A stretch of 64,000 nucleotides of DNA from a bacterium (GCA_043744555.1 JAYTUL010000042.1:5854-69853); one strand, 5' to 3'. Counted from the first letter of the stretch, positions 1,081 to 28,260 are shown. Numbers and translations: made by a program. Notes: generated from the sequence alone by a model not told the origin.

Positions 1081-2313
1081 ATGACAGACAGAGTTACCTT
1101 GCCATCTTTCTCATCGAAAACGATGCTTAATAAAGTTCCAGAAATTACACTGTATTTCTGGGTCATTAAAATCCTTTGCACTACAGTTGGAGAAACAGCA
1201 GCTGATTTTCTCAACGTTAATTTAAATGCTGGTCTCACTATTACTTCTATTGTCACAGGCGTACTGTTGGCGATTGCACTTTTCTTTCAATTCAGAGCAA
1301 GAAAATATATTCCAAGTGTTTACTGGCTTACTGTTGCATTAGTGAGTGTGTTTGGCACATTAGTGACCGATAATCTCACCGACAAAACTGGCTTGCCGCT
1401 ACAAGTGAGCACTCTCATCTTTGCAGCACTGCTTGGAATTACATTTCTAGCTTGGTATGTAAGTGAAAAGACCCTTTCAATTCACTCAATATTTACACGA
1501 AAGCGCGAGGCGTGGTATTGGCTCGCTATCCTTTTCACTTTTGCGCTCGGCACTGCATCAGGTGACCTGATGGCAGAAGGTCTGGGACTGGGGTATTTCA
1601 CTACAGGTCTCATTGTCGCCGGAGTCATTGCGACTACAGTGTTAGCCTGGAGATTCAAGATGAATTCCGTCTTGTCATTCTGGATAATCTATATTCTCAC
1701 GCGTCCGCTCGGTGCTTCAATTGGTGACTTTCTTTCACAGCCTACTAACCACGGCGGACTCGGGCTCGGAGCACCTATGACGAGCCTCCTGTTTCTTTTG
1801 GCGATTTCAGGAACCGTTGCCTATCTTTCTCTGACCAAGCGGGATGTGATAGCTGCTGCGGCAACGGAACGTACAGACGAGTCAAAAGAAAAAGGCGGAC
1901 TCTGGCAGACTGCTCTCGTTGTCGCGTTGTTTAGCATTATTGGGGTAACGGGTTACCAAATACGTCATGCGGCGCTCCTCACCGATAACTCGAGTTCGAC
2001 ATCTACTAGTAGTTCAAGTGTGACTACGAACACTGGAGTGTCGCTGCTTGGTGATCTCTCCACATTCAAGATAATTACACAAGACACACTTGCTAAGCTT
2101 AATGCGAGCGATCAATCAGGTGCAACGACTCGAATTAGTGATCTCGAATATGCATGGGATCAGGCGGCATCTCGACTCAAAGCCAAAAATGGTACTGAGT
2201 GGACAAAGATAGACAAGAAGATTGATACGGTCTTACGAGAGTTGAGATCTACAAGTCCGAATCTTTCGACTGAAAAGTCGGCCCTCGATGCCTTGCTTGT
2301 GGTGCTCAATTAA
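1081..2313 (+). CDS. Polytopic membrane protein with three internal repeats of a W-x-I-x-I-L-x-T-x-x-G-[ET]-x-x-x-D motif and a C-terminal soluble domain (resembles COG4705-type proteins)
   Basis: Repeats WVIKILCTTVGETAADFL / WLAILFTFALGTASGDLMAEG / WIIYILTRPLGASIGDFL. Hydrophobic core with a Ser/Thr-rich linker and a soluble tail. Confidence 0.55.
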   Translation: MTDRVTLPSFSSKTMLNKVPEITLYFWVIKILCTTVGETAADFLNVNLNAGLTITSIVTGVLLAIALFFQFRARKYIPSVYWLTVALVSVFGTLVTDNLTDKTGLPLQVSTLIFAALLGITFLAWYVSEKTLSIHSIFTRKREAWYWLAILFTFALGTASGDLMAEGLGLGYFTTGLIVAGVIATTVLAWRFKMNSVLSFWIIYILTRPLGASIGDFLSQPTNHGGLGLGAPMTSLLFLLAISGTVAYLSLTKRDVIAAAATERTDESKEKGGLWQTALVVALFSIIGVTGYQIRHAALLTDNSSSTSTSSSSVTTNTGVSLLGDLSTFKIITQDTLAKLNASDQSGATTRISDLEYAWDQAASRLKAKNGTEWTKIDKKIDTVLRELRSTSPNLSTEKSALDALLVVLN

Positions 2314-2379: not shown

Positions 2380-2805
2380 TCAGCCCCTTTTTTCAAGTAG
2401 TGCGATGATCTTATTGAGCTTAGTTAAATCAATCTCTGAAAGATGTCTCTGTAATTCTTCGATCTCCTCTTTTGCCTTAATGTTCGTTTCGTAATCTTCA
2501 AGCGCTTGATGGCGGTCCCGCTCTGACTGGCGGTTCTGGCTCATCATGATGATCGGAGCCGCATATGCTGCTTGCGTAGAAAAAAGAAGATTCAAAAGAA
2601 TAAATGGGTATGGATCCCAATGAGAAACGAATGCAACAATATTCAATATCATCCACAGAAAAACAATTATTGATTGCCAGATAATGAACTTCCATGAGCC
2701 CATTACTTTTGCTACTTTATCTGAGAGACGTTCTCCTGCCGTGGATGTCTCTTTGTGCTTTTGATGCCAAGTCTTACTATGATGACCTTTCTCATTCGTA
2801 TGCAT
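2380..2805 (-). CDS. DUF1003-like small membrane protein (copy 1)
   Basis: Two TM helices followed by the conserved motif MMSQNRQSERDRHQA and a coiled-coil tail. Paralog of 7864-8424 (LTVNRQARQ). Confidence 0.55.
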   Translation of the reverse strand: MHTNEKGHHSKTWHQKHKETSTAGERLSDKVAKVMGSWKFIIWQSIIVFLWMILNIVAFVSHWDPYPFILLNLLFSTQAAYAAPIIMMSQNRQSERDRHQALEDYETNIKAKEEIEELQRHLSEIDLTKLNKIIALLEKRG

Positions 2806-11704: not shown

Positions 11705-12742
11705 TTATTTTGGAAATCGAACGGTAAAGTTGCTGCCTTTACCCACCACACTCTCGACTTCTATTGTCGCGTCGTGCATCTTTACTATCTTGCGAACTAT
11801 CGTAAGCCCGAGACCACTCCCGCCCTTGGGGCCGTTTGCGTCCTTGTAGAACACTTCGAAGATGTGAGGGAGGTCGCTTTGCGATATGCCGCGGCCATTG
11901 TCACTTACTGAGAGGGCGGTATAGAGATTAAAATTTTCTGCCGAAAGAAGGATGGATCCGCCACGCGGAGAATTTGCGATCGCATTTTTTGTTAGGTTCA
12001 CGAGCATTTCCTCAAGTGCAGTGAAATTGCCCCATACCTTTACTGGCGTTCCCGCGCTCACCTCAATACCAACACCTGCCGCCGCCGCTTGGGTAGAAAG
12101 TAGATTTTTTGTCTTCTTTATGACATGGGTGATATCGATGGGTGACATCTCGAGATTCAATTCGTTCTCAAATGCGGCGAAGTGGATGAAGAACTCGATG
12201 ATGTTGGCCATGCGGTCCACCTCTTCGGTGATGCTTTTAGTAAGATCCCTGACCTGCTCAGTCGTAAGCATTTCACTGTACATTCGCGCTACCTCCGCAG
12301 TCGTTTTCATTACAGAAAGGGGAGTGCGAAGTTCGTGAGAGACATTTGCGGTAAAGTATTTTTGCTTCTGGCGCACGAGCTCAAATGGCTCGACAACGAT
12401 ACGCGTTAGTGTGTATGCGCTGAATGCGATGAAGCAGAACGCTAATAACTGTATTGCCGCACTCGCATCACGTAACGCTTCAAGGCTATGCGTTTCCAAG
12501 AGCGCGATCTTTTGGCCCAAGCTATAGTCAATGAAGAAATGATAGCCTAATTGTGTGAGAGTTGGACTGGTGATCAGATCAACTAGGGAATAGACAGTAA
12601 ATATGACGAGCATGAACACGAGAAAGAATTTCGTCTCGGTATTAGCAAGAATTCTCCGCAAGTTCCTGCCAATGATTCTATTCTTTGATCGTATAACCCA
12701 CCCCTCTAATAGTCTCCAATAATTTTTTTGAGTATCCTTCAT
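11705..12742 (-). CDS. Sensor histidine kinase (HisKA + HATPase_c)
   Basis: H-box FTANVSHELRTPLSV, N-box NLTKNAIANSP, G-boxes DNGRGI and GSGLGLTIVRKIV, and two N-terminal TM helices. Confidence 0.85.
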   Translation of the reverse strand: MKDTQKNYWRLLEGWVIRSKNRIIGRNLRRILANTETKFFLVFMLVIFTVYSLVDLITSPTLTQLGYHFFIDYSLGQKIALLETHSLEALRDASAAIQLLAFCFIAFSAYTLTRIVVEPFELVRQKQKYFTANVSHELRTPLSVMKTTAEVARMYSEMLTTEQVRDLTKSITEEVDRMANIIEFFIHFAAFENELNLEMSPIDITHVIKKTKNLLSTQAAAAGVGIEVSAGTPVKVWGNFTALEEMLVNLTKNAIANSPRGGSILLSAENFNLYTALSVSDNGRGISQSDLPHIFEVFYKDANGPKGGSGLGLTIVRKIVKMHDATIEVESVVGKGSNFTVRFPK

Positions 12743-13352
12743 CTATTTTTTTTCTAAGATTTTTAATGTGGGCGTCGATTACGTTGCTGAGCGAGCTATC
12801 TGCAAAATCCCACAAATGCGCAAATATATCTTCGCGTCCCATAACTTGGTTGGGGTGGCGCATAAGATATTGTAAAAGTTCGAATTCTTTCAGAGTCAGA
12901 TCAATCTTGTTCTCCCCACGGGCGACCTCACGCGTAGTAGGGTTGAGGACAAGGTCGTGTAATTTTAAGATGCCTGGCAATGATTCGCGCGGTCTGCGCA
13001 GAAGTGCCTGCATGCGCGCATGCAGCTCCCCGAATGCGAACGGCTTGACTAAGTAGTCATCAGCACCGCTGTTGAGTGCGAGAATCTTGTCTTCGATGCC
13101 ATCACGCGCAGTGAGGATGAGGATGGGAAGTGTGACCCCAAGCGAGCGAACGCTTTTGCAGATCTCAAAACCGTTCTTCCCTGGAAGCATAAGATCCAAT
13201 ATAACAATGTCATAGTCGTTGCGACACATGAGTATTCGGTTCTCTCCACGGGGACCGTCTTCGATCACATCGACAGTATAACCCTCGTACTTTAAACCAG
13301 ATTTCAGTGCCTGCGCGAGCTTCTCTTCATCTTCGACGATTAATACCTTCAT
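12678..13352 (-). CDS. OmpR-family response regulator
   Basis: MKVLIVEDEE...DIVILDLMLPGKNGFEI...LILTARD...GADDYLVKPF in the receiver, plus a winged-helix C-terminus (...RGVGYTIKE). Confidence 0.9.
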   Translation of the reverse strand: MKVLIVEDEEKLAQALKSGLKYEGYTVDVIEDGPRGENRILMCRNDYDIVILDLMLPGKNGFEICKSVRSLGVTLPILILTARDGIEDKILALNSGADDYLVKPFAFGELHARMQALLRRPRESLPGILKLHDLVLNPTTREVARGENKIDLTLKEFELLQYLMRHPNQVMGREDIFAHLWDFADSSLSNVIDAHIKNLRKKIDEGYSKKLLETIRGVGYTIKE

Positions 13353-13525
13353 AAATGATGTGCGTGAGCGATTTGATAATTACTTTGATAGTGTCTCAAT
13401 AATATGCAAAGTGTATGAAATTTTCATGAAGATTTACCATCAATCAGGGGTTGGCTATTTGGCCTTTATTTAAGCCAGACTCGTTTTGTACTATAGTATA
13501 GTAGAGTAATTTTGTCAAGAATTGG

Positions 13526-13677
13526 AACGGACTCTCTCTCACCAAAACATGTGGTGATTGAATTGGAAGTACTTGAAATGGTGAGGACGTTAGAACTATT
13601 TTTGAGCACTTAAACGACTCTACTATTATATTCCAGTTGGGGGTTGGTAACAGTTTTTGTTAGCTATAACGGACTCT
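13526..13677 (+). promoter_or_regulatory. Three direct copies of AACG(G)ACTCT (13526, 13613, 13668) plus GAATTGGAA repeats in the divergent promoter region
   Basis: Read directly. The region lies between the response-regulator start (13352, minus) and the FMN-binding gene (13784, plus). Confidence 0.3.
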
Positions 13678-13783
13678 ATCCCGCTAAGGTATGGGAACTC
13701 AGCGTCCCCCGCATCCGAGAGCACACACAGGTTCGTCGTCTGTATTTCAGACAAAAGTCAGTAATAAGCGTATAGTAGAGATC

Positions 13784-14353
13784 ATGCAAAACACCAAACA
13801 GATCATACTCTCAGCCTCCCTTATTGCCGTTTTTATCCTTTTTGTCATTTATGAGAAACAAAATGCAGATTCTTCTGCTAACGCTTTCGTTGCACCCTTG
13901 GCTCAAGGCACTCCTACTGCCATCGATAAAACCCCAAGCGTGACACCCGCAGTACCTCCCGCAACACCCACAAAGCCTTACATACCAGCTCCAACTCCCA
14001 CGCAAGTAGCCATAAAACCAAGTCCCGCGGCTCCCGCTCCAGTTCCTGCGCCTACACCTAGGGTTGCCAAATACCAAGACGGCACGTTTACAGGAAAAGT
14101 TGCAGATGCCTATTTCGGCAATTTGCAAGTTGCGACTGTCATAAATAGCGGTAAGATCACTGATGTGAAATTTCTGGAATATCCAAACGATCAACCTGAG
14201 TCTCTTCAGATAAGCAACCGCACGATGCCTAAACTTAAGTCCGAGGCAATAAGTTCGCAGAGTGAAAAAGTAGATATTATTTCTGGAGCGACACAGACTT
14301 GCGAAGCATTCAATGAGTCGCTCGCAGACGCATTGTTGCAAGCAAAGGCATAA
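13784..14353 (+). CDS. Membrane-anchored FMN-binding (FMN_bind) domain protein with a flavinylation motif
   Basis: TM anchor, a Pro/Ala/Thr-rich linker, then DGTFTGKV...GKITDVKF...VDIISGATQTCEAF. The S-G-A-T motif is the ApbE flavinylation site. Confidence 0.75.
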   Translation: MQNTKQIILSASLIAVFILFVIYEKQNADSSANAFVAPLAQGTPTAIDKTPSVTPAVPPATPTKPYIPAPTPTQVAIKPSPAAPAPVPAPTPRVAKYQDGTFTGKVADAYFGNLQVATVINSGKITDVKFLEYPNDQPESLQISNRTMPKLKSEAISSQSEKVDIISGATQTCEAFNESLADALLQAKA

Positions 14354-14357
14354 GACC

Positions 14358-15107
14358 ATGAAGGAGACGAGACCGGTCATGGGTATGCCTATCACGATTG
14401 AGATATGCGACTTAAATACAGACGCACTTATAATAGAAAAAGTTTTTTCGTACTTTACGCGCACTGATGAGCGTTTCAGTACCTATAAATACGGGAGTGA
14501 GATATCACAATTAAACCGAGGTGAACTTTTGGAGCATGAGTTCAGCCCCGAAATGAAAGAAGTATTATTGCTAGCTGAAATAACTAAGCAAGAAACTCGA
14601 GGATACTTTGATATTTGCACACTGGATGGCCATTTGGATCCATCGGGTATCGTAAAGGGTCTCGCGATACTGCGCGCGGGAGCACTTATTAGGGAGGCTT
14701 CGTTTGAAAATTTTTATATTGAAGCAGGCGGTGATATTGAATCACAAGGATATAACAGTAGCGGGTTGCCCTGGCGGGTGGGAATAAAGGATCCATTCGA
14801 TCCAAAGCGCATTGTAAAGATCATTACCCCCAATGGCTCTGGTGTCGCAACCTCAGGCACATACGAAAGGGGGGAACATATCTATGATCCAATAAATAAG
14901 ACACGCACCGTGGGTGATATAATAAGCATCACGGTCGTGGGTAGAAATGTATACGAGGCCGACCGCTTTGCAACGGCAGCATTCGCCATGGGAAGTAAGG
15001 GGATAGCCTTTATAGAAGACACGCCGAACACTGAGGGCTACAGTATTGACAGTAGTGGTATAGGAACTATGACAAGTGGTTTTGATAAGTTTGTATCAGA
15101 TAAATAA
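14358..15107 (+). CDS. apbE: FAD:protein FMN transferase (ApbE family)
   Basis: VMGMPITIEI, SEISQLNRGE, SGIVKGLA, EAGGDI and ATSGTYERG are ApbE family motifs. Confidence 0.85.
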   Translation: MKETRPVMGMPITIEICDLNTDALIIEKVFSYFTRTDERFSTYKYGSEISQLNRGELLEHEFSPEMKEVLLLAEITKQETRGYFDICTLDGHLDPSGIVKGLAILRAGALIREASFENFYIEAGGDIESQGYNSSGLPWRVGIKDPFDPKRIVKIITPNGSGVATSGTYERGEHIYDPINKTRTVGDIISITVVGRNVYEADRFATAAFAMGSKGIAFIEDTPNTEGYSIDSSGIGTMTSGFDKFVSDK

Positions 15108-15112
15108 TATTT

Positions 15113-16633
15113 ATGCTTCTCACAATCGATAATTTTTTGAATAAGATAACGATGTATCGGCTGGTCCTTTATTATCTGACTGGACTTTTTTTTATCGCAC
15201 TTCTATTCGCAATATTCGGTATCCTTCCGTACTCGCCGGTTGCACTAGTCTATTCCCTTATCGTGTTACTTATGGCATGTGTACTCACGAACACATTGTT
15301 CGCACGCGTATTCGCAGTCGAGGCGAATGTTGAATCAACATATATCACCGCTTTCATTCTTGCCCTCATCATCTCTCCCGTTGCGGTAAGTGATATACAT
15401 GGTGGACTTTTCCTTGTGAGCGCGGCGGTCATCGCGATGGCTTCTAAGTTCGTCTTTGCCATCGATCGAAAGCATATCTTTAATCCCGCGGCATTTGCAG
15501 TCGCCATCACCGCGGCAACCATGGGTAACTCTGCAAGCTGGTGGGTGGGCGGCAATATCCCCATGATCCTATTTGTGGTGATCGGAGGAGTGCTCGTGGT
15601 GCGGAAGATTCGCCACGTCGATCTGATGGTCGCTTTTTTTGTAGCTGCGCTCGTAAGTGTTGCCTTATTTGCACGCGCGGGAGCCGACCCGCTACTGTCG
15701 ATGCAAAAAGCCCTTACACATTCGCCTATTTTATTTCTTGCGTTTGTCATGCTCACCGAGCCACTCACGACACCTCCCACACGAAAGCTGCGCATACTTT
15801 ATGCAGGACTTGTGGGATTACTCTATTCGCCAGCAGTGCACCTCGCGAGTATTTATTCAACTCCGGAGCTTGCGCTCTTGGTCGGAAATATATTTTCATA
15901 CTGCGTGAGCCCCAAAGGTAAACTTCTCCTTCGTCTGAAAGAGATAAAAAGCATCGCTTTCGGAACTCAAGAATATGTTTTTGATGCTCCCACAATACCC
16001 GAGTTCAAATCCGGTCAATATATGGAATGGACTCTAGGGCAAGCACACATCGATAGTCGTGGTAATCGCAGGTACTTCACTATCGCTTCCTCGCCCACTG
16101 AACCGACCATCCGTCTTGGGGTGCGCATGTACCCTAATGCGAGTACATTCAAAAGTACGCTCGCGACACTGAGTCCTGGTGACACCCTGATCGCAGGGCA
16201 ACTTGCAGGAGATTTTGTCTTGCCCGAAGATAAGAAACAAAAATTAGTTTTTATTGCTGGCGGTATCGGCGTAACTCCTTTTCGCAGCATGATCAAATAC
16301 ATGCTTGATACGAATGAGAAGCGAACAATCACGCTCATGTATTCGAACAAAACAGCGTCTGAGATCGCATACAAAGAACTTTTTGAGGAAGCAGCAGAAA
16401 AACTCGGTATTAAGAATGTTTATACTCTCACAGATGAAATTCCTAAGGATTGGAGTGGTCGCACGGGATTCATTAGTAGGACGATGATCGAAGAAGAGGT
16501 GCAGGATCACCTAGAGAGTATGTTCTATATTTCAGGTCCACAGGCAATGGTCGCCACTTTTGAGAAAACACTTTCAGAAATGGGCATTCCAAAGAGTCAT
16601 ATCAAAACTGACTTTTTCCCAGGTTTCGCCTGA
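15113..16633 (+). CDS. Fusion of an RnfD/NqrB-like membrane domain to an NqrF/FNR-like FAD + NAD(P)H oxidoreductase domain
   Basis: The N-terminal domain has KHIFNPAAFAVAI (compare RnfD NPFNPAM) and MLTEPLTTPPTRKLRILYAGLVGLL (compare RnfD [25 protein letters not shown]). Where RnfD has SGAT it has SMQK. The C-terminal domain has RYFTIASSP (RxYS FAD motif), GGIGVTPF (NAD motif) and YISGPQAM. Confidence 0.75.
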   Translation: MLLTIDNFLNKITMYRLVLYYLTGLFFIALLFAIFGILPYSPVALVYSLIVLLMACVLTNTLFARVFAVEANVESTYITAFILALIISPVAVSDIHGGLFLVSAAVIAMASKFVFAIDRKHIFNPAAFAVAITAATMGNSASWWVGGNIPMILFVVIGGVLVVRKIRHVDLMVAFFVAALVSVALFARAGADPLLSMQKALTHSPILFLAFVMLTEPLTTPPTRKLRILYAGLVGLLYSPAVHLASIYSTPELALLVGNIFSYCVSPKGKLLLRLKEIKSIAFGTQEYVFDAPTIPEFKSGQYMEWTLGQAHIDSRGNRRYFTIASSPTEPTIRLGVRMYPNASTFKSTLATLSPGDTLIAGQLAGDFVLPEDKKQKLVFIAGGIGVTPFRSMIKYMLDTNEKRTITLMYSNKTASEIAYKELFEEAAEKLGIKNVYTLTDEIPKDWSGRTGFISRTMIEEEVQDHLESMFYISGPQAMVATFEKTLSEMGIPKSHIKTDFFPGFA

Positions 16634-16665
16634 GCAGCAGTAACTCTGGTATAATTGTTTTTACT

Positions 16666-18342
16666 ATGAACGACCTGAACGAAAAGAAGGAAGTGGGTGA
16701 GATCAAGTCTTTTTTTAAGGGAGACGTTGAAGAAAGCGATGCAGTGCTCGATGAGTACAGCCATGACACGAGTCTCTTCACTGTGAGACCAAGCCTTGTT
16801 ACATTTCCAAAAGATAGTGCTGACATATCTCAGTTGGTGCATTATGTAAATAAAAAAAATAGCGAGGGGGGGGAACAGAAACTCTCTCTTACCGCGCGTT
16901 GTGCAGGTACGGATATGACCGGAGGCCCACTCACAGAGTCTATTGTGGTCGCATGTACGCGCTATCTCAATAAGCTGAGATCCATTGAAGGCGACATCGC
17001 AGTGGTCGAGCCTGGGATGTTCTATCGTGATTTTGATAAGGAGACCCTCAAACACGGACTGATACTTCCAAGCTACACTGCTTCGCGCGAGATAAATACC
17101 GTCGGGGGAATGGCTGCAAACAATTCAGGCGGTGAAAAGAATCTCATGTACGGTAAGACCGAGCGCTGGGTAAGGGCGCTCTCCGTAGTGCTCGATGACG
17201 GCTCTATTGAGATATTCCATGAGCTTACATCGGACGAGCTTGAAGCCAAGAAATCGGCAAGTAATCGTGCAGCCGAGATCTACCGCAAGATGCATGAACT
17301 CATCATCCAAAATTACGATGTCATCATGACCGCGAAACCAAATGTTTCGAAGAATTCTTCAGGTTACTACTTGTGGAATGTCTACGATAAAGAACGCGGA
17401 ACATTTGATCTTACTAAGATGATCGTCGGCTCGCAGGGAACGCTAGGTATTATCACCGAGATAACCTATGCACTCGTCAAGCCAAAGCCGCACCGACGCA
17501 TGATCACCATTTTCCTGAAGGATCTGTCTTTTCTTGGCACGCTCGTCAATCATGTGCTTTCATTTAAGCCTGAAAGCTTTGAGTCATACGATGACCACAC
17601 GTTCTCACTTGCCATGCGCTTCTTCCCTCAGATAGCAAAGCGCTTGAAGGGTAACTTGATCACGCTTGGAATTAGTTTTATTCCTGAGTTTTGGCTCGTC
17701 ATCTCGGGGGGCGTGCCCAAGCTCATTCTGCTTGCAGAATTCTCAGGCGACACCGAAGAAGAGGTCGTGCGCAACGCCACAGCTGCCGCAAAAGACATTG
17801 CAGACACATTTCATGTGCCTGTACGCGTGCTCCACTCTGAGGCTGAGGCAGAGAAGTATTGGGTCATTCGTCGTGAAAGCTTTAGTTTGTTGAGACAGAA
17901 TCTGCATGGAATGCGCACCGCACCGTTTATCGATGATTTCGTGGTTCGTCCTGAATTCCTGCCTGAGTTCATGCCAAAGTTGAATACTATTCTCGATAAG
18001 TATCATTTAATCTATACCATCGCGGGACATGTTGGGGACGGAAATTTCCATATCATACCGCTTATGGATCTTTACGACCCAAAGTCCAAAGAAATCATTC
18101 AGACACTTTCCAAAGAAGTCTATGAGCTCGTGTTCTCATATCACGGTGTCATCACGGGCGAGCACAACGACGGCATTATTCGTACCCCCTATCTTGAGGA
18201 AGAATTTGGTACTCCTATCTACGACTTGTTCATTGCGACTAAGAATATTTTTGATCCCAACGCAATTTTCAATCCCGGCAAGAAAGTCGGAGGCACGCTT
18301 GCTTATGCCATGGAGCACATCGACACTCGCAAAACCGCCTAG
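16666..18342 (+). CDS. FAD-linked oxidase (FAD_binding_4 / GlcD-D-lactate dehydrogenase-like)
   Basis: CAGTDMTGGPL is a PCMH-type FAD-binding motif and the size matches the family. Confidence 0.85.
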   Translation: MNDLNEKKEVGEIKSFFKGDVEESDAVLDEYSHDTSLFTVRPSLVTFPKDSADISQLVHYVNKKNSEGGEQKLSLTARCAGTDMTGGPLTESIVVACTRYLNKLRSIEGDIAVVEPGMFYRDFDKETLKHGLILPSYTASREINTVGGMAANNSGGEKNLMYGKTERWVRALSVVLDDGSIEIFHELTSDELEAKKSASNRAAEIYRKMHELIIQNYDVIMTAKPNVSKNSSGYYLWNVYDKERGTFDLTKMIVGSQGTLGIITEITYALVKPKPHRRMITIFLKDLSFLGTLVNHVLSFKPESFESYDDHTFSLAMRFFPQIAKRLKGNLITLGISFIPEFWLVISGGVPKLILLAEFSGDTEEEVVRNATAAAKDIADTFHVPVRVLHSEAEAEKYWVIRRESFSLLRQNLHGMRTAPFIDDFVVRPEFLPEFMPKLNTILDKYHLIYTIAGHVGDGNFHIIPLMDLYDPKSKEIIQTLSKEVYELVFSYHGVITGEHNDGIIRTPYLEEEFGTPIYDLFIATKNIFDPNAIFNPGKKVGGTLAYAMEHIDTRKTA

Positions 18343-18754
18343 CAAAGGTCGCAGCACTTGGCGCACTACTCGCCCTTCCTTCTTTGGGTTTGGAGGCAGT
18401 ATCACTCAAACACCAAATCTGTCCAGGACTTCGCATTGCACCCAATTGCCGCACCCTTTCGTCTGATCTTTGTCAGCAAGGTTTTTTAATTATATGAGCC
18501 AACGCGCAAGTAGCTAATTTCGATACAGTGCGAGGCGACAAGGTCGTGGCAACCAAAAATTAGAGTGATACATTAAAACTTATATAATCGGATGCATTGC
18601 CTAGTTATTAATGAAACAGTCAAGATTCAAAAAACGCGATAAATCGGATGGAGCGCGAAGTTCTGGACTGAGGGGGTGTTTGTGAAGCTGTACAGAAGTA
18701 CTGCTTCCAAACCCGCCGAAGGAAGGACGAGTGGGCCGCCGATTTTTCGCGTTT

Positions 18755-19900
18755 TTAAAAGGTTGGGGTGCAAACGTAGATCAGATGATTGGAATAGTCA
18801 CTACCCGCAGCCTGTAATCCAGATATTTCTATCTTATATGCGACGCGGATCTTTCCAATATTTTGCGTTGAACCGTCTGCGGCACTCGCATTGGAGAAAA
18901 TAACTCGTGTTGTTGTCGCAAAATTACCAACATATTTTGAACCGGAAAATTCGCCAGCATTCAGGTCCGCATCATCACTTGTGACTCCCATGTGTCCATA
19001 GGTGAGCGCATTTCCTGTTGTTGCTGCTGGCGCTGTCCACACAATAGGGGTCGCCTGGCCATTTCCATCTTTGAAAGTGTATATCTGGGAGCCTGCGCTT
19101 GAGATCAGGTTTTGGTCTTCTTTAACTGTAACAACAAATCCACTCACGGCATTTGTTGTTACTGAGAGTTCTTGTCCAGCAATGATAGGCGTGGATGGGG
19201 TCAAAATTCCATAAGCAATTGCTGTTGCGCTCGTGGTGGTCGAAGTTATCTCGCCATTGACTGCCGAGCCCGAGGCAAGTCCGGTTATTGTAAAGAAAAG
19301 ACTGGTTGCGACATCAGCTGAGACGAGGACCTGATTCAAAATGACGACTCGGGTATCGCCACTGTCAGGTTGTGTGCCTGCTACGCGAACAATGTATGAG
19401 CCTGGAGTGGCGGGGTTAGTAACATGATTATTGGTGAATACGACAGTTTTATTTCCGCTCGAGACGGCGCCGCATGCGGTCAGGGTAACACTCTTATTGC
19501 CGGCTGCATTGGAGATACCACCACTTATTGAAACCTGATTCGCAGTTACTGCACCACATGCCCCCGTGGTGATCGTGAGATTGGTGGGTGTGCCTGATGT
19601 TATGACATCAGTACTTACAAGTGAGGCAAGATCAAAGGTGCTATTGCCTGGATCAAAGCTTATCTTGATGGTCTGGCCTAAAGCGAGCGCATTTGTCGCT
19701 GTCCAATTAACTGTGTAATTGGTATTAGCAGAAGGCACACTTGAAGATGCTGTGGCACTGATCGGGGTTAGCGCGGCAGCAGACGCAGTCGCAAAAATAA
19801 GCGACCATCCGCTTAGGCCTAATAATATTGAAATGATGAGCGAAAATGCGATACTCGGCGTGCTCAAAATAGACCGAATAACAAAACGGGGATAGTTCAT
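18755..19900 (-). CDS. Secreted Thr/Ser/Ala/Gly-rich cell-surface protein (beta-rich, adhesin/pilin-like)
   Basis: Signal/TM N-terminus, then low-complexity T/S/A/G/N-rich sequence of the kind seen in Ig-like surface proteins. Confidence 0.55.
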   Translation of the reverse strand: MNYPRFVIRSILSTPSIAFSLIISILLGLSGWSLIFATASAAALTPISATASSSVPSANTNYTVNWTATNALALGQTIKISFDPGNSTFDLASLVSTDVITSGTPTNLTITTGACGAVTANQVSISGGISNAAGNKSVTLTACGAVSSGNKTVVFTNNHVTNPATPGSYIVRVAGTQPDSGDTRVVILNQVLVSADVATSLFFTITGLASGSAVNGEITSTTTSATAIAYGILTPSTPIIAGQELSVTTNAVSGFVVTVKEDQNLISSAGSQIYTFKDGNGQATPIVWTAPAATTGNALTYGHMGVTSDDADLNAGEFSGSKYVGNFATTTRVIFSNASAADGSTQNIGKIRVAYKIEISGLQAAGSDYSNHLIYVCTPTF

Positions 19901-20975: not shown

Positions 20976-21419
20976 TTATACTTTAACTTGTTTTGCGCAT
21001 TTTTTACAACGACCAAAGAATTCAAGCGAGTGGTCAAGAGTGCCCGCAAACTTAATCGACCTTCTGAGTACAGCTTGCTCGATAAGTGCAATATTGCATT
21101 CGGGGACATCCTCCGTCAGTCCGCATGACCTACAGATAAGATGATGATGGTGCTCAGTTTCTAGGCGCAGTTCGTAGTGGGCATGCCCATGCTGCATATC
21201 AACTTGTCTTACTACTGAAACCGCAAGCAGTGAGTCTAGCGTGCGATACACGGTTGCCTGATCAACTTTCCCACCAAGTTTTTTGAGTATCTCTTGGGTT
21301 GTGAGTGGATGATCGGCGTTTTTGAGGACAGCAAGCAACAATAGTCGTGCGGGCGTAGCTTTATAGCCGTTTTCTCTAAGAACGGCGGAAAATTTCTCAA
21401 GTGATGGTGAAGCAAGCAT
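20976..21419 (-). CDS. zur: Fur-family regulator, probably Zur
   Basis: ATPARLLLLAVL...VYRTLDSL...HHHHLICRSCG...CKKC. It sits directly upstream of the ZIP gene. Confidence 0.8.
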   Translation of the reverse strand: MLASPSLEKFSAVLRENGYKATPARLLLLAVLKNADHPLTTQEILKKLGGKVDQATVYRTLDSLLAVSVVRQVDMQHGHAHYELRLETEHHHHLICRSCGLTEDVPECNIALIEQAVLRRSIKFAGTLDHSLEFFGRCKKCAKQVKV

Positions 21420-26721: not shown

Positions 26722-28260
26722 ATGAAACAACAGAGACCTACAAACCACACCCACTGGGCAAAGCAAAAACCTGAACTATATATGCTTGCCGGCCTCTTTG
26801 TGTCCTGCATGGCCATAGTGATGGCGGGTAACACCCTTCTGCCCGCCTCACAGTCTATCGCCAACTCTTCTCCCGCACTCTTGTATAAAGTAGCGATGAA
26901 TGAAGAGATGCATCGACCGACCGTCAGTGTTCCGGAAGCAGGAAAATTGATCGCGGTCGACTTGAATTCAATGGAGCTGTCACTTTATGAAGATAGCGTA
27001 AAGGAAAAGACATTCACCATACTTTCTCGTGGCAGAGAGGGTACAGCATGGGAAACTCCGACGGGAAAATATAGAATACAGTCAAAAGAGCTGAAACACC
27101 TCTCAAGCATAGGCGGTACGTGGATGCCGTACAGTATGCAATTTTATGGAAATTTTTTCATTCATGGCTGGCCAACATACAAGAATGGAGAGAACGTGCC
27201 CGTCGGTTATTCGGGGGGGTGCATCCGTATGTCGACCGCGGACGCAAGTGAAGTGTATGCATTTGCAGCACTCGGAACTCGCGTCATTGTGAGTGGCGGG
27301 ACCTCAAAAGATACATATGCGACAACTTCACGCTATTACCTGCATCTGCCAGAAAAGTCAGACTCATTAGTGGCAGAAAAGATCTTGCCGACTGTTACCG
27401 CCCCGTCCTTTGTTGTCTCAGATGCGATGACAGGAGATGTGTTGTGGGAGCGCGGTGCCTCACATGCACTTTCGCCTGGGGCGCTTGTTTCACTCGCGAC
27501 CGCCCTCACTGCGGTCGAGACAGTCAACCAATATAAGATCGTGCGCATGGGTGAGCTACTGCTCGGGAAGTCCGTCTTGCGTAAGGAGACACTTGGATAT
27601 GCTGATGAGCTGCCGGTTGGAACCCTTATCTATCCGCTTCTGTATGACACGAGCGACACAGCAGCAAAAGTATTCTCACGTGAACACGGTGAACGAAAGT
27701 TTAAGTCATACATGAACGAAAAAGCGGAAGCGATAGGAATGAACGCGACGCATTTTGGGGGAGGGTCATCGCAAGATGCATCGACCTCGACTGCTCGCGA
27801 CCTTGATATGCTTTTGCGTTACACTCTCTTGCATAAACATTTTCTTGTCGCAGCCTCATTGTCGAGTAAGCGCACTATTGTTGATAGCGATGGGAACCGT
27901 CGCTTCGAATGGGAAAATAAGAACCCGTGGGTACAGAACGGCGACCCCGCTTATCGCGGTGGCATCGCAAAAGAAGAAGATGACGGAAGTGGTAGTGCGA
28001 TGACACTTTTTGATCTGCCCGTGTCTGAATTTGGCGCGAGGACGATAGCGATAGTTATCCTTGGTTCGAAGGATCTTAAGGGAGATGTTTCGGTGCTCAA
28101 ACAATTTGTTGCTGATTACTACGTCTATGATATCGAGCGCAAAGAACAGTTCACCCACGAGGGGATGGAGCCAACGCCCTCACTTTATCAAAAAGCTTCG
28201 ACCTTGCTTGGTCTTGAGAAACTTTTGAAGCAAGACATCGTTTATGATCGCGAGATATGA
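26722..28260 (+). CDS. L,D-transpeptidase (YkuD domain) fused to a C-terminal serine-peptidase S11/PBP5-like domain that appears catalytically degenerate
   Basis: YkuD: FIHGWP...GYSGGCIRM. The C-terminal domain has S11-like SFVVSDAMTGDVLWERGASHALSPGALVSLATAL, but SxxK reads S-L-A-T and no clear SxN or KTG is present. Confidence 0.65.
   Translation: MKQQRPTNHTHWAKQKPELYMLAGLFVSCMAIVMAGNTLLPASQSIANSSPALLYKVAMNEEMHRPTVSVPEAGKLIAVDLNSMELSLYEDSVKEKTFTILSRGREGTAWETPTGKYRIQSKELKHLSSIGGTWMPYSMQFYGNFFIHGWPTYKNGENVPVGYSGGCIRMSTADASEVYAFAALGTRVIVSGGTSKDTYATTSRYYLHLPEKSDSLVAEKILPTVTAPSFVVSDAMTGDVLWERGASHALSPGALVSLATALTAVETVNQYKIVRMGELLLGKSVLRKETLGYADELPVGTLIYPLLYDTSDTAAKVFSREHGERKFKSYMNEKAEAIGMNATHFGGGSSQDASTSTARDLDMLLRYTLLHKHFLVAASLSSKRTIVDSDGNRRFEWENKNPWVQNGDPAYRGGIAKEEDDGSGSAMTLFDLPVSEFGARTIAIVILGSKDLKGDVSVLKQFVADYYVYDIERKEQFTHEGMEPTPSLYQKASTLLGLEKLLKQDIVYDREI

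Follow-up and report, generated by a model that had tools for sequence, protein, structure and literature searches.

The closest described relatives of the system considered here are the "NQR/RNF-like systems", which were defined by Méheust et al. (2021, eLife; PMC8238504) as flavinylation clusters in which one protein carries NqrB/RnfD (PF03116) as its N-terminal domain and an NqrF-type NAD-binding domain (PF00175) at its C-terminus, and which were found mainly in Actinobacteria and in the candidate phyla radiation (CPR). That survey counted 127 such clusters after ApbE and FMN_bind genes for which no signal peptide was predicted had been discarded, described the CPR as "strikingly underrepresented" and, having found VIT1 iron transporters in 6 of the 127 clusters, proposed a role in iron assimilation (PMC8238504). 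Huang et al. (2024, mSystems; PMC11334425) later modelled the complex of Ktedonobacter racemifer with AlphaFold-multimer. They described the membrane domain of this class as being without the flavinylation threonine which is conserved in NqrB/RnfD, and proposed that the flavin mononucleotide (FMN) of the extracytosolic subunit, docked on the outer face, reaches the flavin site of the membrane subunit. The published model is one of unidirectional transfer from NAD(P)H to extracytosolic FMN (PMC8238504; PMC11334425). Here we describe a cluster within a 64,000-nucleotide stretch of bacterial DNA (GCA_043744555.1, JAYTUL010000042.1:5854-69853; hereafter "the window") which, judged by its sequence, is an ordinary CPR member of this class.

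We identified four co-directional open reading frames (ORFs) on the plus strand, separated by 4, 5 and 32 nucleotides (nt), which encode in order an FMN_bind subunit, an ApbE-type flavin transferase, a fusion of an RnfD/NqrB-like membrane domain with an NqrF/FNR-like domain, and a GlcD-like oxidase dependent on flavin adenine dinucleotide (FAD) (Table 1). Only Pfam matches above the gathering cut-offs were counted, and on this basis the tight, co-directional arrangement and all four domain identities given in an earlier note on this DNA stand; the strings quoted there (ISGATQT, FNPA, LTEPLTTPP, RILYAGL, SMQK and GGIGVTP) are likewise all present in the sequence. PF03116 and PF00175 (the latter at residues 380-483) occur in a single protein, with the FMN_bind (PF04205) and ApbE (PF02424) genes directly upstream of it. 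The membrane domain is without the flavinylated threonine, and the FMN_bind subunit carries the acceptor motif and is predicted to be extracytosolic. In its architecture, in the missing threonine and in belonging to the CPR, which lies within the stated range of the class, the cluster differs in nothing essential from the published systems. The central idea of the earlier note, in which a minimal system of NQR/RNF descent carries electrons from NAD(P)H in the cytoplasm, by way of a single protein with B-like and F-like parts, to an extracellular FMN put in place by ApbE, was supported by every test which we ran; it is also the model already published between 2021 and 2024, including the B-like domain that is not flavinylated. 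What is added here to the published class is modest, namely the residue-level cause of the missing threonine, the uniformly leaderless ApbE of a CPR clade and the size of that clade.

The parent complexes themselves are not encoded around the cluster. We scanned 29 ORFs between positions 580 and 32118, none of which matched NqrA, NqrD/E or RnfA/E, and no RnfB or RnfC gene was found among them. Neither the six subunits of Na+-NQR (NqrA-F, with covalent FMN on NqrB) nor the set which makes up RNF (RnfA, B, C, D, E and G, with covalent FMN on RnfD) could be assembled from these ORFs. The Na+-NQR of Vibrio cholerae has NqrA, NqrD/E and a 2Fe-2S ferredoxin domain, which the window system does not, whereas in the window the B-like and F-like parts share one polypeptide with no covalent FMN site on the B-like part; electron flow is predicted to be one-way and outward, in contrast to the Vibrio enzyme, where it loops back to quinone. 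Compared to RNF (C. tetanomorphum, 7ZC6; A. vinelandii, 8AHX), the cluster is without RnfA, B, C and E, the five-helix linker bearing the flavinylated threonine measures 11 residues instead of 50-75, and a fused FNR-type domain takes the place of the N- and C-terminal arms by which RnfD binds RnfC. The fusion scores 21 bits for TIGR01946 (rnfD) against a cut-off of 207.

The flavin-based extracellular electron transfer of Listeria monocytogenes is alike in that an ApbE-type enzyme flavinylates a membrane-tethered FMN_bind protein and electrons reach outside acceptors without an outer membrane in the way. However, electrons cross the membrane of Listeria through Ndh2 and quinone and here through an RnfD-like flavin domain, and FmnB of Listeria is a lipoprotein which is exported and receives its FAD through a dedicated transporter, in contrast to the leaderless ApbE of the window. 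Of the components of a Listeria-type locus (Ndh2, EetA/EetB, DmkA/B, PplA and FmnB), Ndh2 and EetA/B were not found among the scanned neighbours and PplA reached 17 bits against a cut-off of 325, so that such a locus is not present around the cluster. The flanks (580-32118) also encode no flavin transporter, Tat component, reductase or second ApbE.

The N-terminal domain of the fusion was found to align to RnfD/NqrB over its whole fold, as the earlier note had expected of an RnfD/NqrB-like domain. In single-sequence and profile HMMER searches against the PDB, the membrane domain aligned to RnfD over its C-terminal half only, and a fold search together with global hhalign was needed for the rest. 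AlphaFold2 models of the full fusion (predicted local distance difference test score, pLDDT, 78; predicted template modelling score, pTM, 0.73) and of residues 1-272 (pLDDT 75, pTM 0.75) contain ten helices, five plus five, the two halves of which are joined solely by a short linker at residues 138-148. In Foldseek, the membrane-domain model matched solved structures with an E value of 1e-5 and a template modelling (TM) score of 0.70. According to the RNF structure (PMC9588780), RnfD consists of two inverted five-helix halves with an extracellular "five-helix linker" (residues 140-190), which covers FMN(RnfD) in the outer leaflet. Riboflavin lies in the inner leaflet, 7.7 Å from FMN(RnfD) and 11.7 Å from the first cytoplasmic Fe-S cluster (PMC9588780), so that a single domain of the RnfD type suffices for an electronic path across the membrane.

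When the window family was aligned to E. coli RsxD, as translated from K-12 genomic sequence, global hhalign placed N-x-E-S/D-N-S, FNPA/FNPA, GG..RK/GG..QK and TEP/TDP in register. RsxD carries SQAT187PLD within its linker, and T187 is presumably the flavinylated threonine, as known for V. cholerae RnfD (Backiel et al. 2008). In this alignment RsxD residues ~143-222, which include SQAT187PLD, face only five window residues and otherwise gaps, and the loop with the acceptor threonine has therefore been deleted rather than substituted. The fusion has thus lost an extracellular linker of ~75 residues together with the flavinylation threonine, and no [ST]GA[ST] motif was found anywhere in the protein.

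The earlier note was right that the membrane domain would not be flavinylated, but the reason which it gave, that SMQK occupies the SGAT site, concerns the wrong position. SMQK faces RsxD ~275-278 ("APQI") in the profile alignment, and we rejected it as an SGAT equivalent; the true site, T187, lies in the deleted linker. The choice of SMQK was probably prompted by "LLSGATML" in RsxD. This incidental SGAT (residues 285-288, just before TDP; L086 4143-5201) is not the flavinylation site, and it is a trap for any motif-based reading of RnfD-like proteins. The SASWW sequence (S-A-S/T) of the residual linker was also considered as a vestigial acceptor, which is unlikely as its third position is Asn in one homolog and [ST]GA[ST] is absent.

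The residues which are invariant in the family, N72-x-E74-S75, K120-H-x-F-N124-P-A-A, M213-x-T-E216-P-x-T-x-P-P and P251-E252...G258-N259, are concentrated where helices III, V, VIII and X end. These helices form the flavin cavity in RnfD (PMC9588780), and the clustering is consistent with flavin sites having been retained. Asn124 and Asp248 of C. tetanomorphum RnfD are highly conserved and have been proposed to bind Na+ (PMC9588780); we infer that they correspond to the Asn in FNPA and the Asp in TDP, which would make N124 and E216 their counterparts in the window protein.

The C-terminal domain of the fusion has NqrF FAD/NAD domains as its closest solved structures (E 8e-18), the match including the stretch D-x-x-P-x-D-W-[ST]-G-x-T-G-F-I, and NCBIfam models of flavohaemoprotein and NqrF-type reductases match residues 291-502, covering the FAD and NAD subdomains. 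R320, F322 and T323 are invariant in the family, as is GGIGxTP, and the domain ends in FFPGFA. The earlier note had credited this domain with RxYS and GGxGxTP; the second occurs as GGIGVTP, whereas the first is not found literally, the sequence being RRYFT, an RxFT form of the motif.

The FMN_bind subunit begins with a Sec-type anchor helix, IILSASLIAVFILFVIY, followed by a linker of about 60-90 amino acids which is rich in Pro, Thr, Ser and Ala; were translation to start further upstream, at the ATG at 13691, the protein would have 220 amino acids. Within its flavinylation motif, Thr170 (nt 14291-14293) is the predicted FMN acceptor, and [ST]GA[TS] was kept in all 68 FMN_bind orthologs. The ortholog N-termini are typically MKKFxLS followed by about 17 hydrophobic residues. 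Charge-bias averages were taken over the 37 of the 68 orthologs with a clear hydrophobic anchor, and the flank N-terminal to the anchor holds more K+R than the C-terminal flank (1.95 vs 0.65) and less D+E (0.19 vs 1.08). Ortholog linkers average 60 amino acids, with P at 17%, T at 15%, S at 12% and A at 12%. Due to the positive-inside bias and the linker composition, the FMN_bind domain is predicted to be N-in/C-out, i.e. outside the cell. Both lines of evidence agree on this placement, which is that of the earlier note, and neither points to the cytoplasm.

We compared the gene order with that of 80 related loci (L006-L085), some of which are truncated and all of which come from metagenome-assembled or uncultured genomes. 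An FMN_bind homolog was present in 69 of these, directly upstream of ApbE and the fusion, and an ApbE homolog in 64. Homologs of other window genes were found as follows: GlcD-like oxidase in 2 loci, ZIP transporter in 3, Fur-family regulator in 1, response regulator in 4 and histidine kinase in 5. As the GlcD-like gene occurs in 2 of the 80 loci and the triad in 64-69, we conclude that the conserved unit consists of three genes and that the GlcD-like oxidase is a lineage-specific neighbour; the statement that four genes make up the module was not borne out and a four-gene module was rejected on synteny. The two loci with an adjacent GlcD-like gene are an 87%-identical relative, in which it is downstream (L006), and one in which it is upstream instead (L046). 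In relatives at 63% and 56% identity, this position is taken by a glycosyltransferase or a D-Ala-D-Ala-ligase-like gene. An extended -10 element, TGGTATAAT, which is a perfect match to the consensus, lies at 16647-16655, 10 nt before the GlcD-like ATG, and as a consensus match it would fit a separate, nearly leaderless GlcD-like transcript. Neither a membrane segment nor a flavinylation motif is present in the GlcD-like protein, which scores too far below every NCBIfam equivalog cut-off (YdiJ, 257 of 1350; GlcD, 177 of 568) for a substrate to be assigned.

Unbiased clustering of the non-core neighbours (within ~5 kb) in the 80 loci gave no conserved fourth partner. The most frequent were a MacB-type ATP-binding cassette (ABC) ATPase (15 loci), in many cases accompanied by HlyD-like and FtsX-like proteins, a NAD-dependent D-2-hydroxyacid dehydrogenase (12 loci), a sigma-70-family factor (9 loci) and enolase (8 loci). 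These common neighbours, the dehydrogenase and enolase included, may point to a connection with NADH balance in fermentation.

The same fusion was found in thousands of full-length relatives. An E value of ≤ 1e-5 was reached by 7998 of 8000 candidates, and the top 120 were full length with 54-87% identity. Named relatives belong to Minisyncoccia, Paceibacterota and Liptonbacteria, and all informative organism names among the fusion-bearing genomes were Patescibacteria/CPR lineages, which bears out the guess that the window comes from a reduced-genome organism; the label "uncultured Gammaproteobacteria" on three records is apparently due to wrong binning. Patescibacteria are regarded as fermenters without respiratory chains. 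A widespread three-gene NAD(P)H electron exporter would provide such cells with a redox vent or a means of reducing metals and may bear on their interactions with hosts and minerals, an idea which is already published and of which the window is one more instance. In an abundance scan with one genome per species, at least 581 genomes encoded a fusion relative, and the module is much commoner in the CPR than the 2021 count of 127 clusters indicates. Complete CPR genomes with the module include OY970195.1, OY970354.1 and OY970175.1. Given the leaderless ApbE, the underrepresentation of the CPR in that survey may be due to its signal-peptide filter.

The reading that we consider probable is that of a two-subunit complex with its own maturation enzyme, which takes electrons from NAD(P)H to an FMN outside the cell. 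In RnfD and NqrB, an inner-leaflet pocket holds riboflavin and an outer-leaflet pocket holds a covalent FMN, capped by the five-helix linker. In the window system, the cytoplasmic NqrF/FNR-like domain of the fusion would oxidise NAD(P)H on its FAD and pass the electrons to the ten-helix domain, where they would be received by a flavin that is probably non-covalent and sits in the inner-leaflet pocket. Because the capping linker and its threonine have been deleted, the outer pocket would be open, and the FMN which ApbE is expected to attach to Thr170 could dock there and take the electron. The FMN_bind domain, on its long Pro/Thr-rich tether, would then hand electrons to an extracytoplasmic acceptor, for which ferric iron is a candidate because of the occasional ZIP and Fur neighbours.

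Several points weigh against this reading. The confidence of the AlphaFold2 models is moderate (pLDDT 75-78) and drops to less than 60 in the pocket regions (around residues 130-150 and 190-220), and the flavins assigned to the membrane domain are presumed by homology only. A conserved terminal reductase or acceptor gene was looked for among the neighbours of the 80 loci and none was found, nor did we find a biochemically characterised member in the literature on the class (PMC8238504; PMC11334425). The one oddity is the attachment of flavin to an outside domain by a leaderless ApbE. No signal peptide or anchor was present in any of 63 ApbE orthologs, even when the longest ORFs were used, and the substrate looks Sec-exported.

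This ApbE begins about 7 residues ahead of the conserved core (MKETRxL...), and in the window its longest ORF, from 14313, adds 15 residues which are all hydrophilic. Its motifs ATSG, HIYDP and EADRFATA can be aligned with ApbE from E. coli and V. cholerae, and the transferase motifs are thus intact. ApbE enzymes which act on exported substrates are normally lipoproteins or secreted, although this is typical rather than strictly defining. The topology account of the earlier note, sound as to the FMN_bind domain, overlooked the missing export signal of ApbE and is complicated by it. A cytosolic ApbE acting on a cytosolic substrate is documented for the fumarate reductase of Klebsiella pneumoniae (PMC12052999). 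That enzyme also has no signal peptide and is encoded near its substrate; its substrate, however, is soluble and cytoplasmic, whereas the one in the window is anchored by a Sec-type helix and predicted to lie outside the cell.

Tat export of a pre-flavinylated, folded domain was considered and rejected, as an RR-like motif was found in just 2 of the 68 FMN_bind N-termini. Since ApbE is leaderless in 63 of 63 cases, the substrates are Sec-type and not Tat-type and the transferase motifs are intact, it is allowable to suggest, tentatively and with considerable doubt, that in this CPR clade a cytoplasmic ApbE flavinylates the unfolded FMN_bind precursor and that the chain bearing FMN-threonine is then exported by Sec. 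The same facts would have a simpler explanation if the genome also encoded a secreted ApbE at another locus, or if export were non-classical. If true, cytoplasmic flavinylation would break the current rule, under which exported substrates are modified outside by an exported ApbE, and it would need no FAD export, an economy which suits a minimal genome. The uniformly leaderless ApbE raises a concrete, testable question as to the site of flavinylation.

Two further readings are refinements of outward electron transfer rather than exclusive alternatives to it. The first, which we regard as unlikely, is that the module serves the assimilation of ferric iron or another metal, with the FMN reducing Fe(III) outside, ZIP importing the product, and a Fur-family regulator and a two-component system in control. 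It draws on the Fur-ZIP pair 2-3 kb downstream of the module, on ZIP genes beside the module in L025 (4289-5188) and L049 (4433-5155; divergent, directly upstream) as well as L006, and on the VIT1 transporters of the 2021 survey. The divergent OmpR/histidine kinase pair next to the module, which the earlier note had reported and Pfam confirmed, is also relevant here: a homologous response regulator (49-57% identity), usually with a histidine kinase, lies upstream of the module in L025 and downstream in L030, L049 and L051. However, the 3 ZIP adjacencies among 80 loci compare with a rough chance expectation of about one, Fur was found once, ZIP/Fur-family pairs serve zinc more often, and the commonest neighbours (the MacB-type ABC transporter, the sigma factor and glycolytic genes) are unrelated. 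The recurrence of these genes in varied arrangements is suggestive, on small numbers, of a connection with regulation or metals in a minority of the lineages. The proposal that the OmpR/histidine kinase pair regulates the module gains suggestive support from its adjacency in 4-5 of the 80 loci; the pair are possible regulators, and Fur and ZIP possible functional neighbours, rather than core components.

The second refinement, which seems to us quite unlikely, is that outward electron transfer is coupled to Na+ or H+, so that the module would act as a small generator of membrane potential for a fermentative CPR cell. RnfD/NqrB is the Na+-conducting subunit of its complexes, the whole transporter-like fold has been kept, and FNPA and TEP, in register with FNPA and TDP of RsxD, are family-invariant and would hold the two proposed Na+ ligands. 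Against any such ion co-transport, pumping by NQR and RNF is thought to need NqrD/E or RnfA/E, which are absent here, together with movements of the five-helix linker, which has been deleted, and the residues at Asn124/Asp248 also serve in riboflavin binding (PMC9588780).

It is very unlikely, in our judgement, that the FMN_bind domain and its flavinylation are cytoplasmic and that the complex, instead of conducting electrons across the membrane, is a cytoplasmic NAD(P)H oxidoreductase attached to it. The leaderless ApbE in 63 of 63 clusters and the K. pneumoniae precedent (PMC12052999) would be accommodated by such an arrangement. The FMN_bind anchor, however, is positive-inside and N-in/C-out with a linker of ~60 P/T/S/A-rich residues, as is typical of wall-spanning tethers, and the N-termini resemble Sec signals. 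Homologous domains in NqrC and RnfG lie outside the cytoplasm, the outer face is where the domain docks in the published multimer model, and a cytoplasmic location would leave the ten-helix RnfD-type domain without an evident role. Finally, it is highly improbable that the GlcD-like oxidase belongs integrally to the module as a fourth component, in which role it might, for instance, supply electrons from 2-hydroxyacids, since its co-directional position 32 nt downstream, its adjacency in two lineages at two positions and the D-2-hydroxyacid dehydrogenases at 12 of 80 loci are outweighed by its rarity, its replacement in the 63% and 56% relatives, the -10 element just ahead of its ATG, its want of a membrane segment or flavinylation motif and the NAD(P)H input domain which the fusion already owns.

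Table 1 Features of the electron-transfer cluster and of nearby genes, in positions of the window
Feature	Position	Strand	Evidence or remark
FMN_bind subunit, NqrC/RnfG-like, 189 amino acids	13784-14353	+	Pfam PF04205, 39.9 bits
Sec-type signal-anchor helix IILSASLIAVFILFVIY	13802-13852	+	N-terminus of FMN_bind protein
Possible signal-peptidase site, between ANA and F	13877-13888	+	
Flavinylation motif DIISGATQT	14273-14299	+	Sequence read directly
Leaderless ApbE FAD:protein FMN transferase, 249 amino acids	14358-15107	+	Pfam PF02424, 130.3 bits
Fusion protein, 506 amino acids	15113-16633	+	NQR2_RnfD_RnfE 37.1 bits (cut-off 27.7) and NAD_binding_1 73.2 bits
RnfD/NqrB-like membrane domain of fusion, residues 1-268	15113-15916	+	Ten helices as two inverted five-helix halves
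Residual 11-residue linker GNSASWWVGGN, residues 138-148	15524-15556	+	AlphaFold2: flanked by helices 125-137 and 149-166
SMQK, residues 196-199, in a variable loop	15698-15709	+	Column not conserved among 20 homologs
NqrF/FNR-like FAD and NAD(P)H-binding domain of fusion, residues ~271-506	15923-16633	+	PF00175, 73.2 bits
RRYFT	16067-16081	+	Sequence read
GGIGVTP	16259-16279	+	Sequence read
GlcD/YdiJ-N-like FAD-linked 2-hydroxyacid oxidase or dehydrogenase, 558 amino acids	16666-18342	+	PF01565 (FAD_binding_4) 84.7 bits and PF02913 (FAD-oxidase_C) 141.9 bits
Histidine kinase	11705-12742	- (divergent)	Pfam
OmpR-type response regulator	12678-13352	- (divergent)	Pfam
ZIP metal transporter	20222 to about 20965/21109	-	Pfam
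Fur-family regulator	20976-21419	-	Pfam

Scans of positions 13300-18800 for sigma-70 promoters (11 sites vs 8.8 expected) and intrinsic terminators (6 vs 4.8 expected) were at chance level, so that the limits of the operon are not definable from them, and Rfam and tRNA scans of the window gave no match. The Fur-family regulator and ZIP transporter form an apparent operon on the strand opposite to the module. Between the module and this pair, a 381-residue protein at 18755-19900 (minus strand) has no Pfam match, an N-terminal hydrophobic segment and a Thr/Ser/Ala-rich body, and may be a surface protein; a homolog was found beside the module solely in the 87%-identical relative L006 (1 of 80 loci). 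At the left end of the window are a four-repeat DUF347 membrane protein (1081-2313, plus strand; 199 bits) and a DUF1003 protein (2380-2805, minus strand). Further to the right, a single ORF of 512 amino acids at 26722-28260 (plus strand) joins an L,D-transpeptidase (YkuD) to a D-Ala-D-Ala carboxypeptidase (Peptidase_S11), a cell-wall enzyme fusion which is itself worthy of note.

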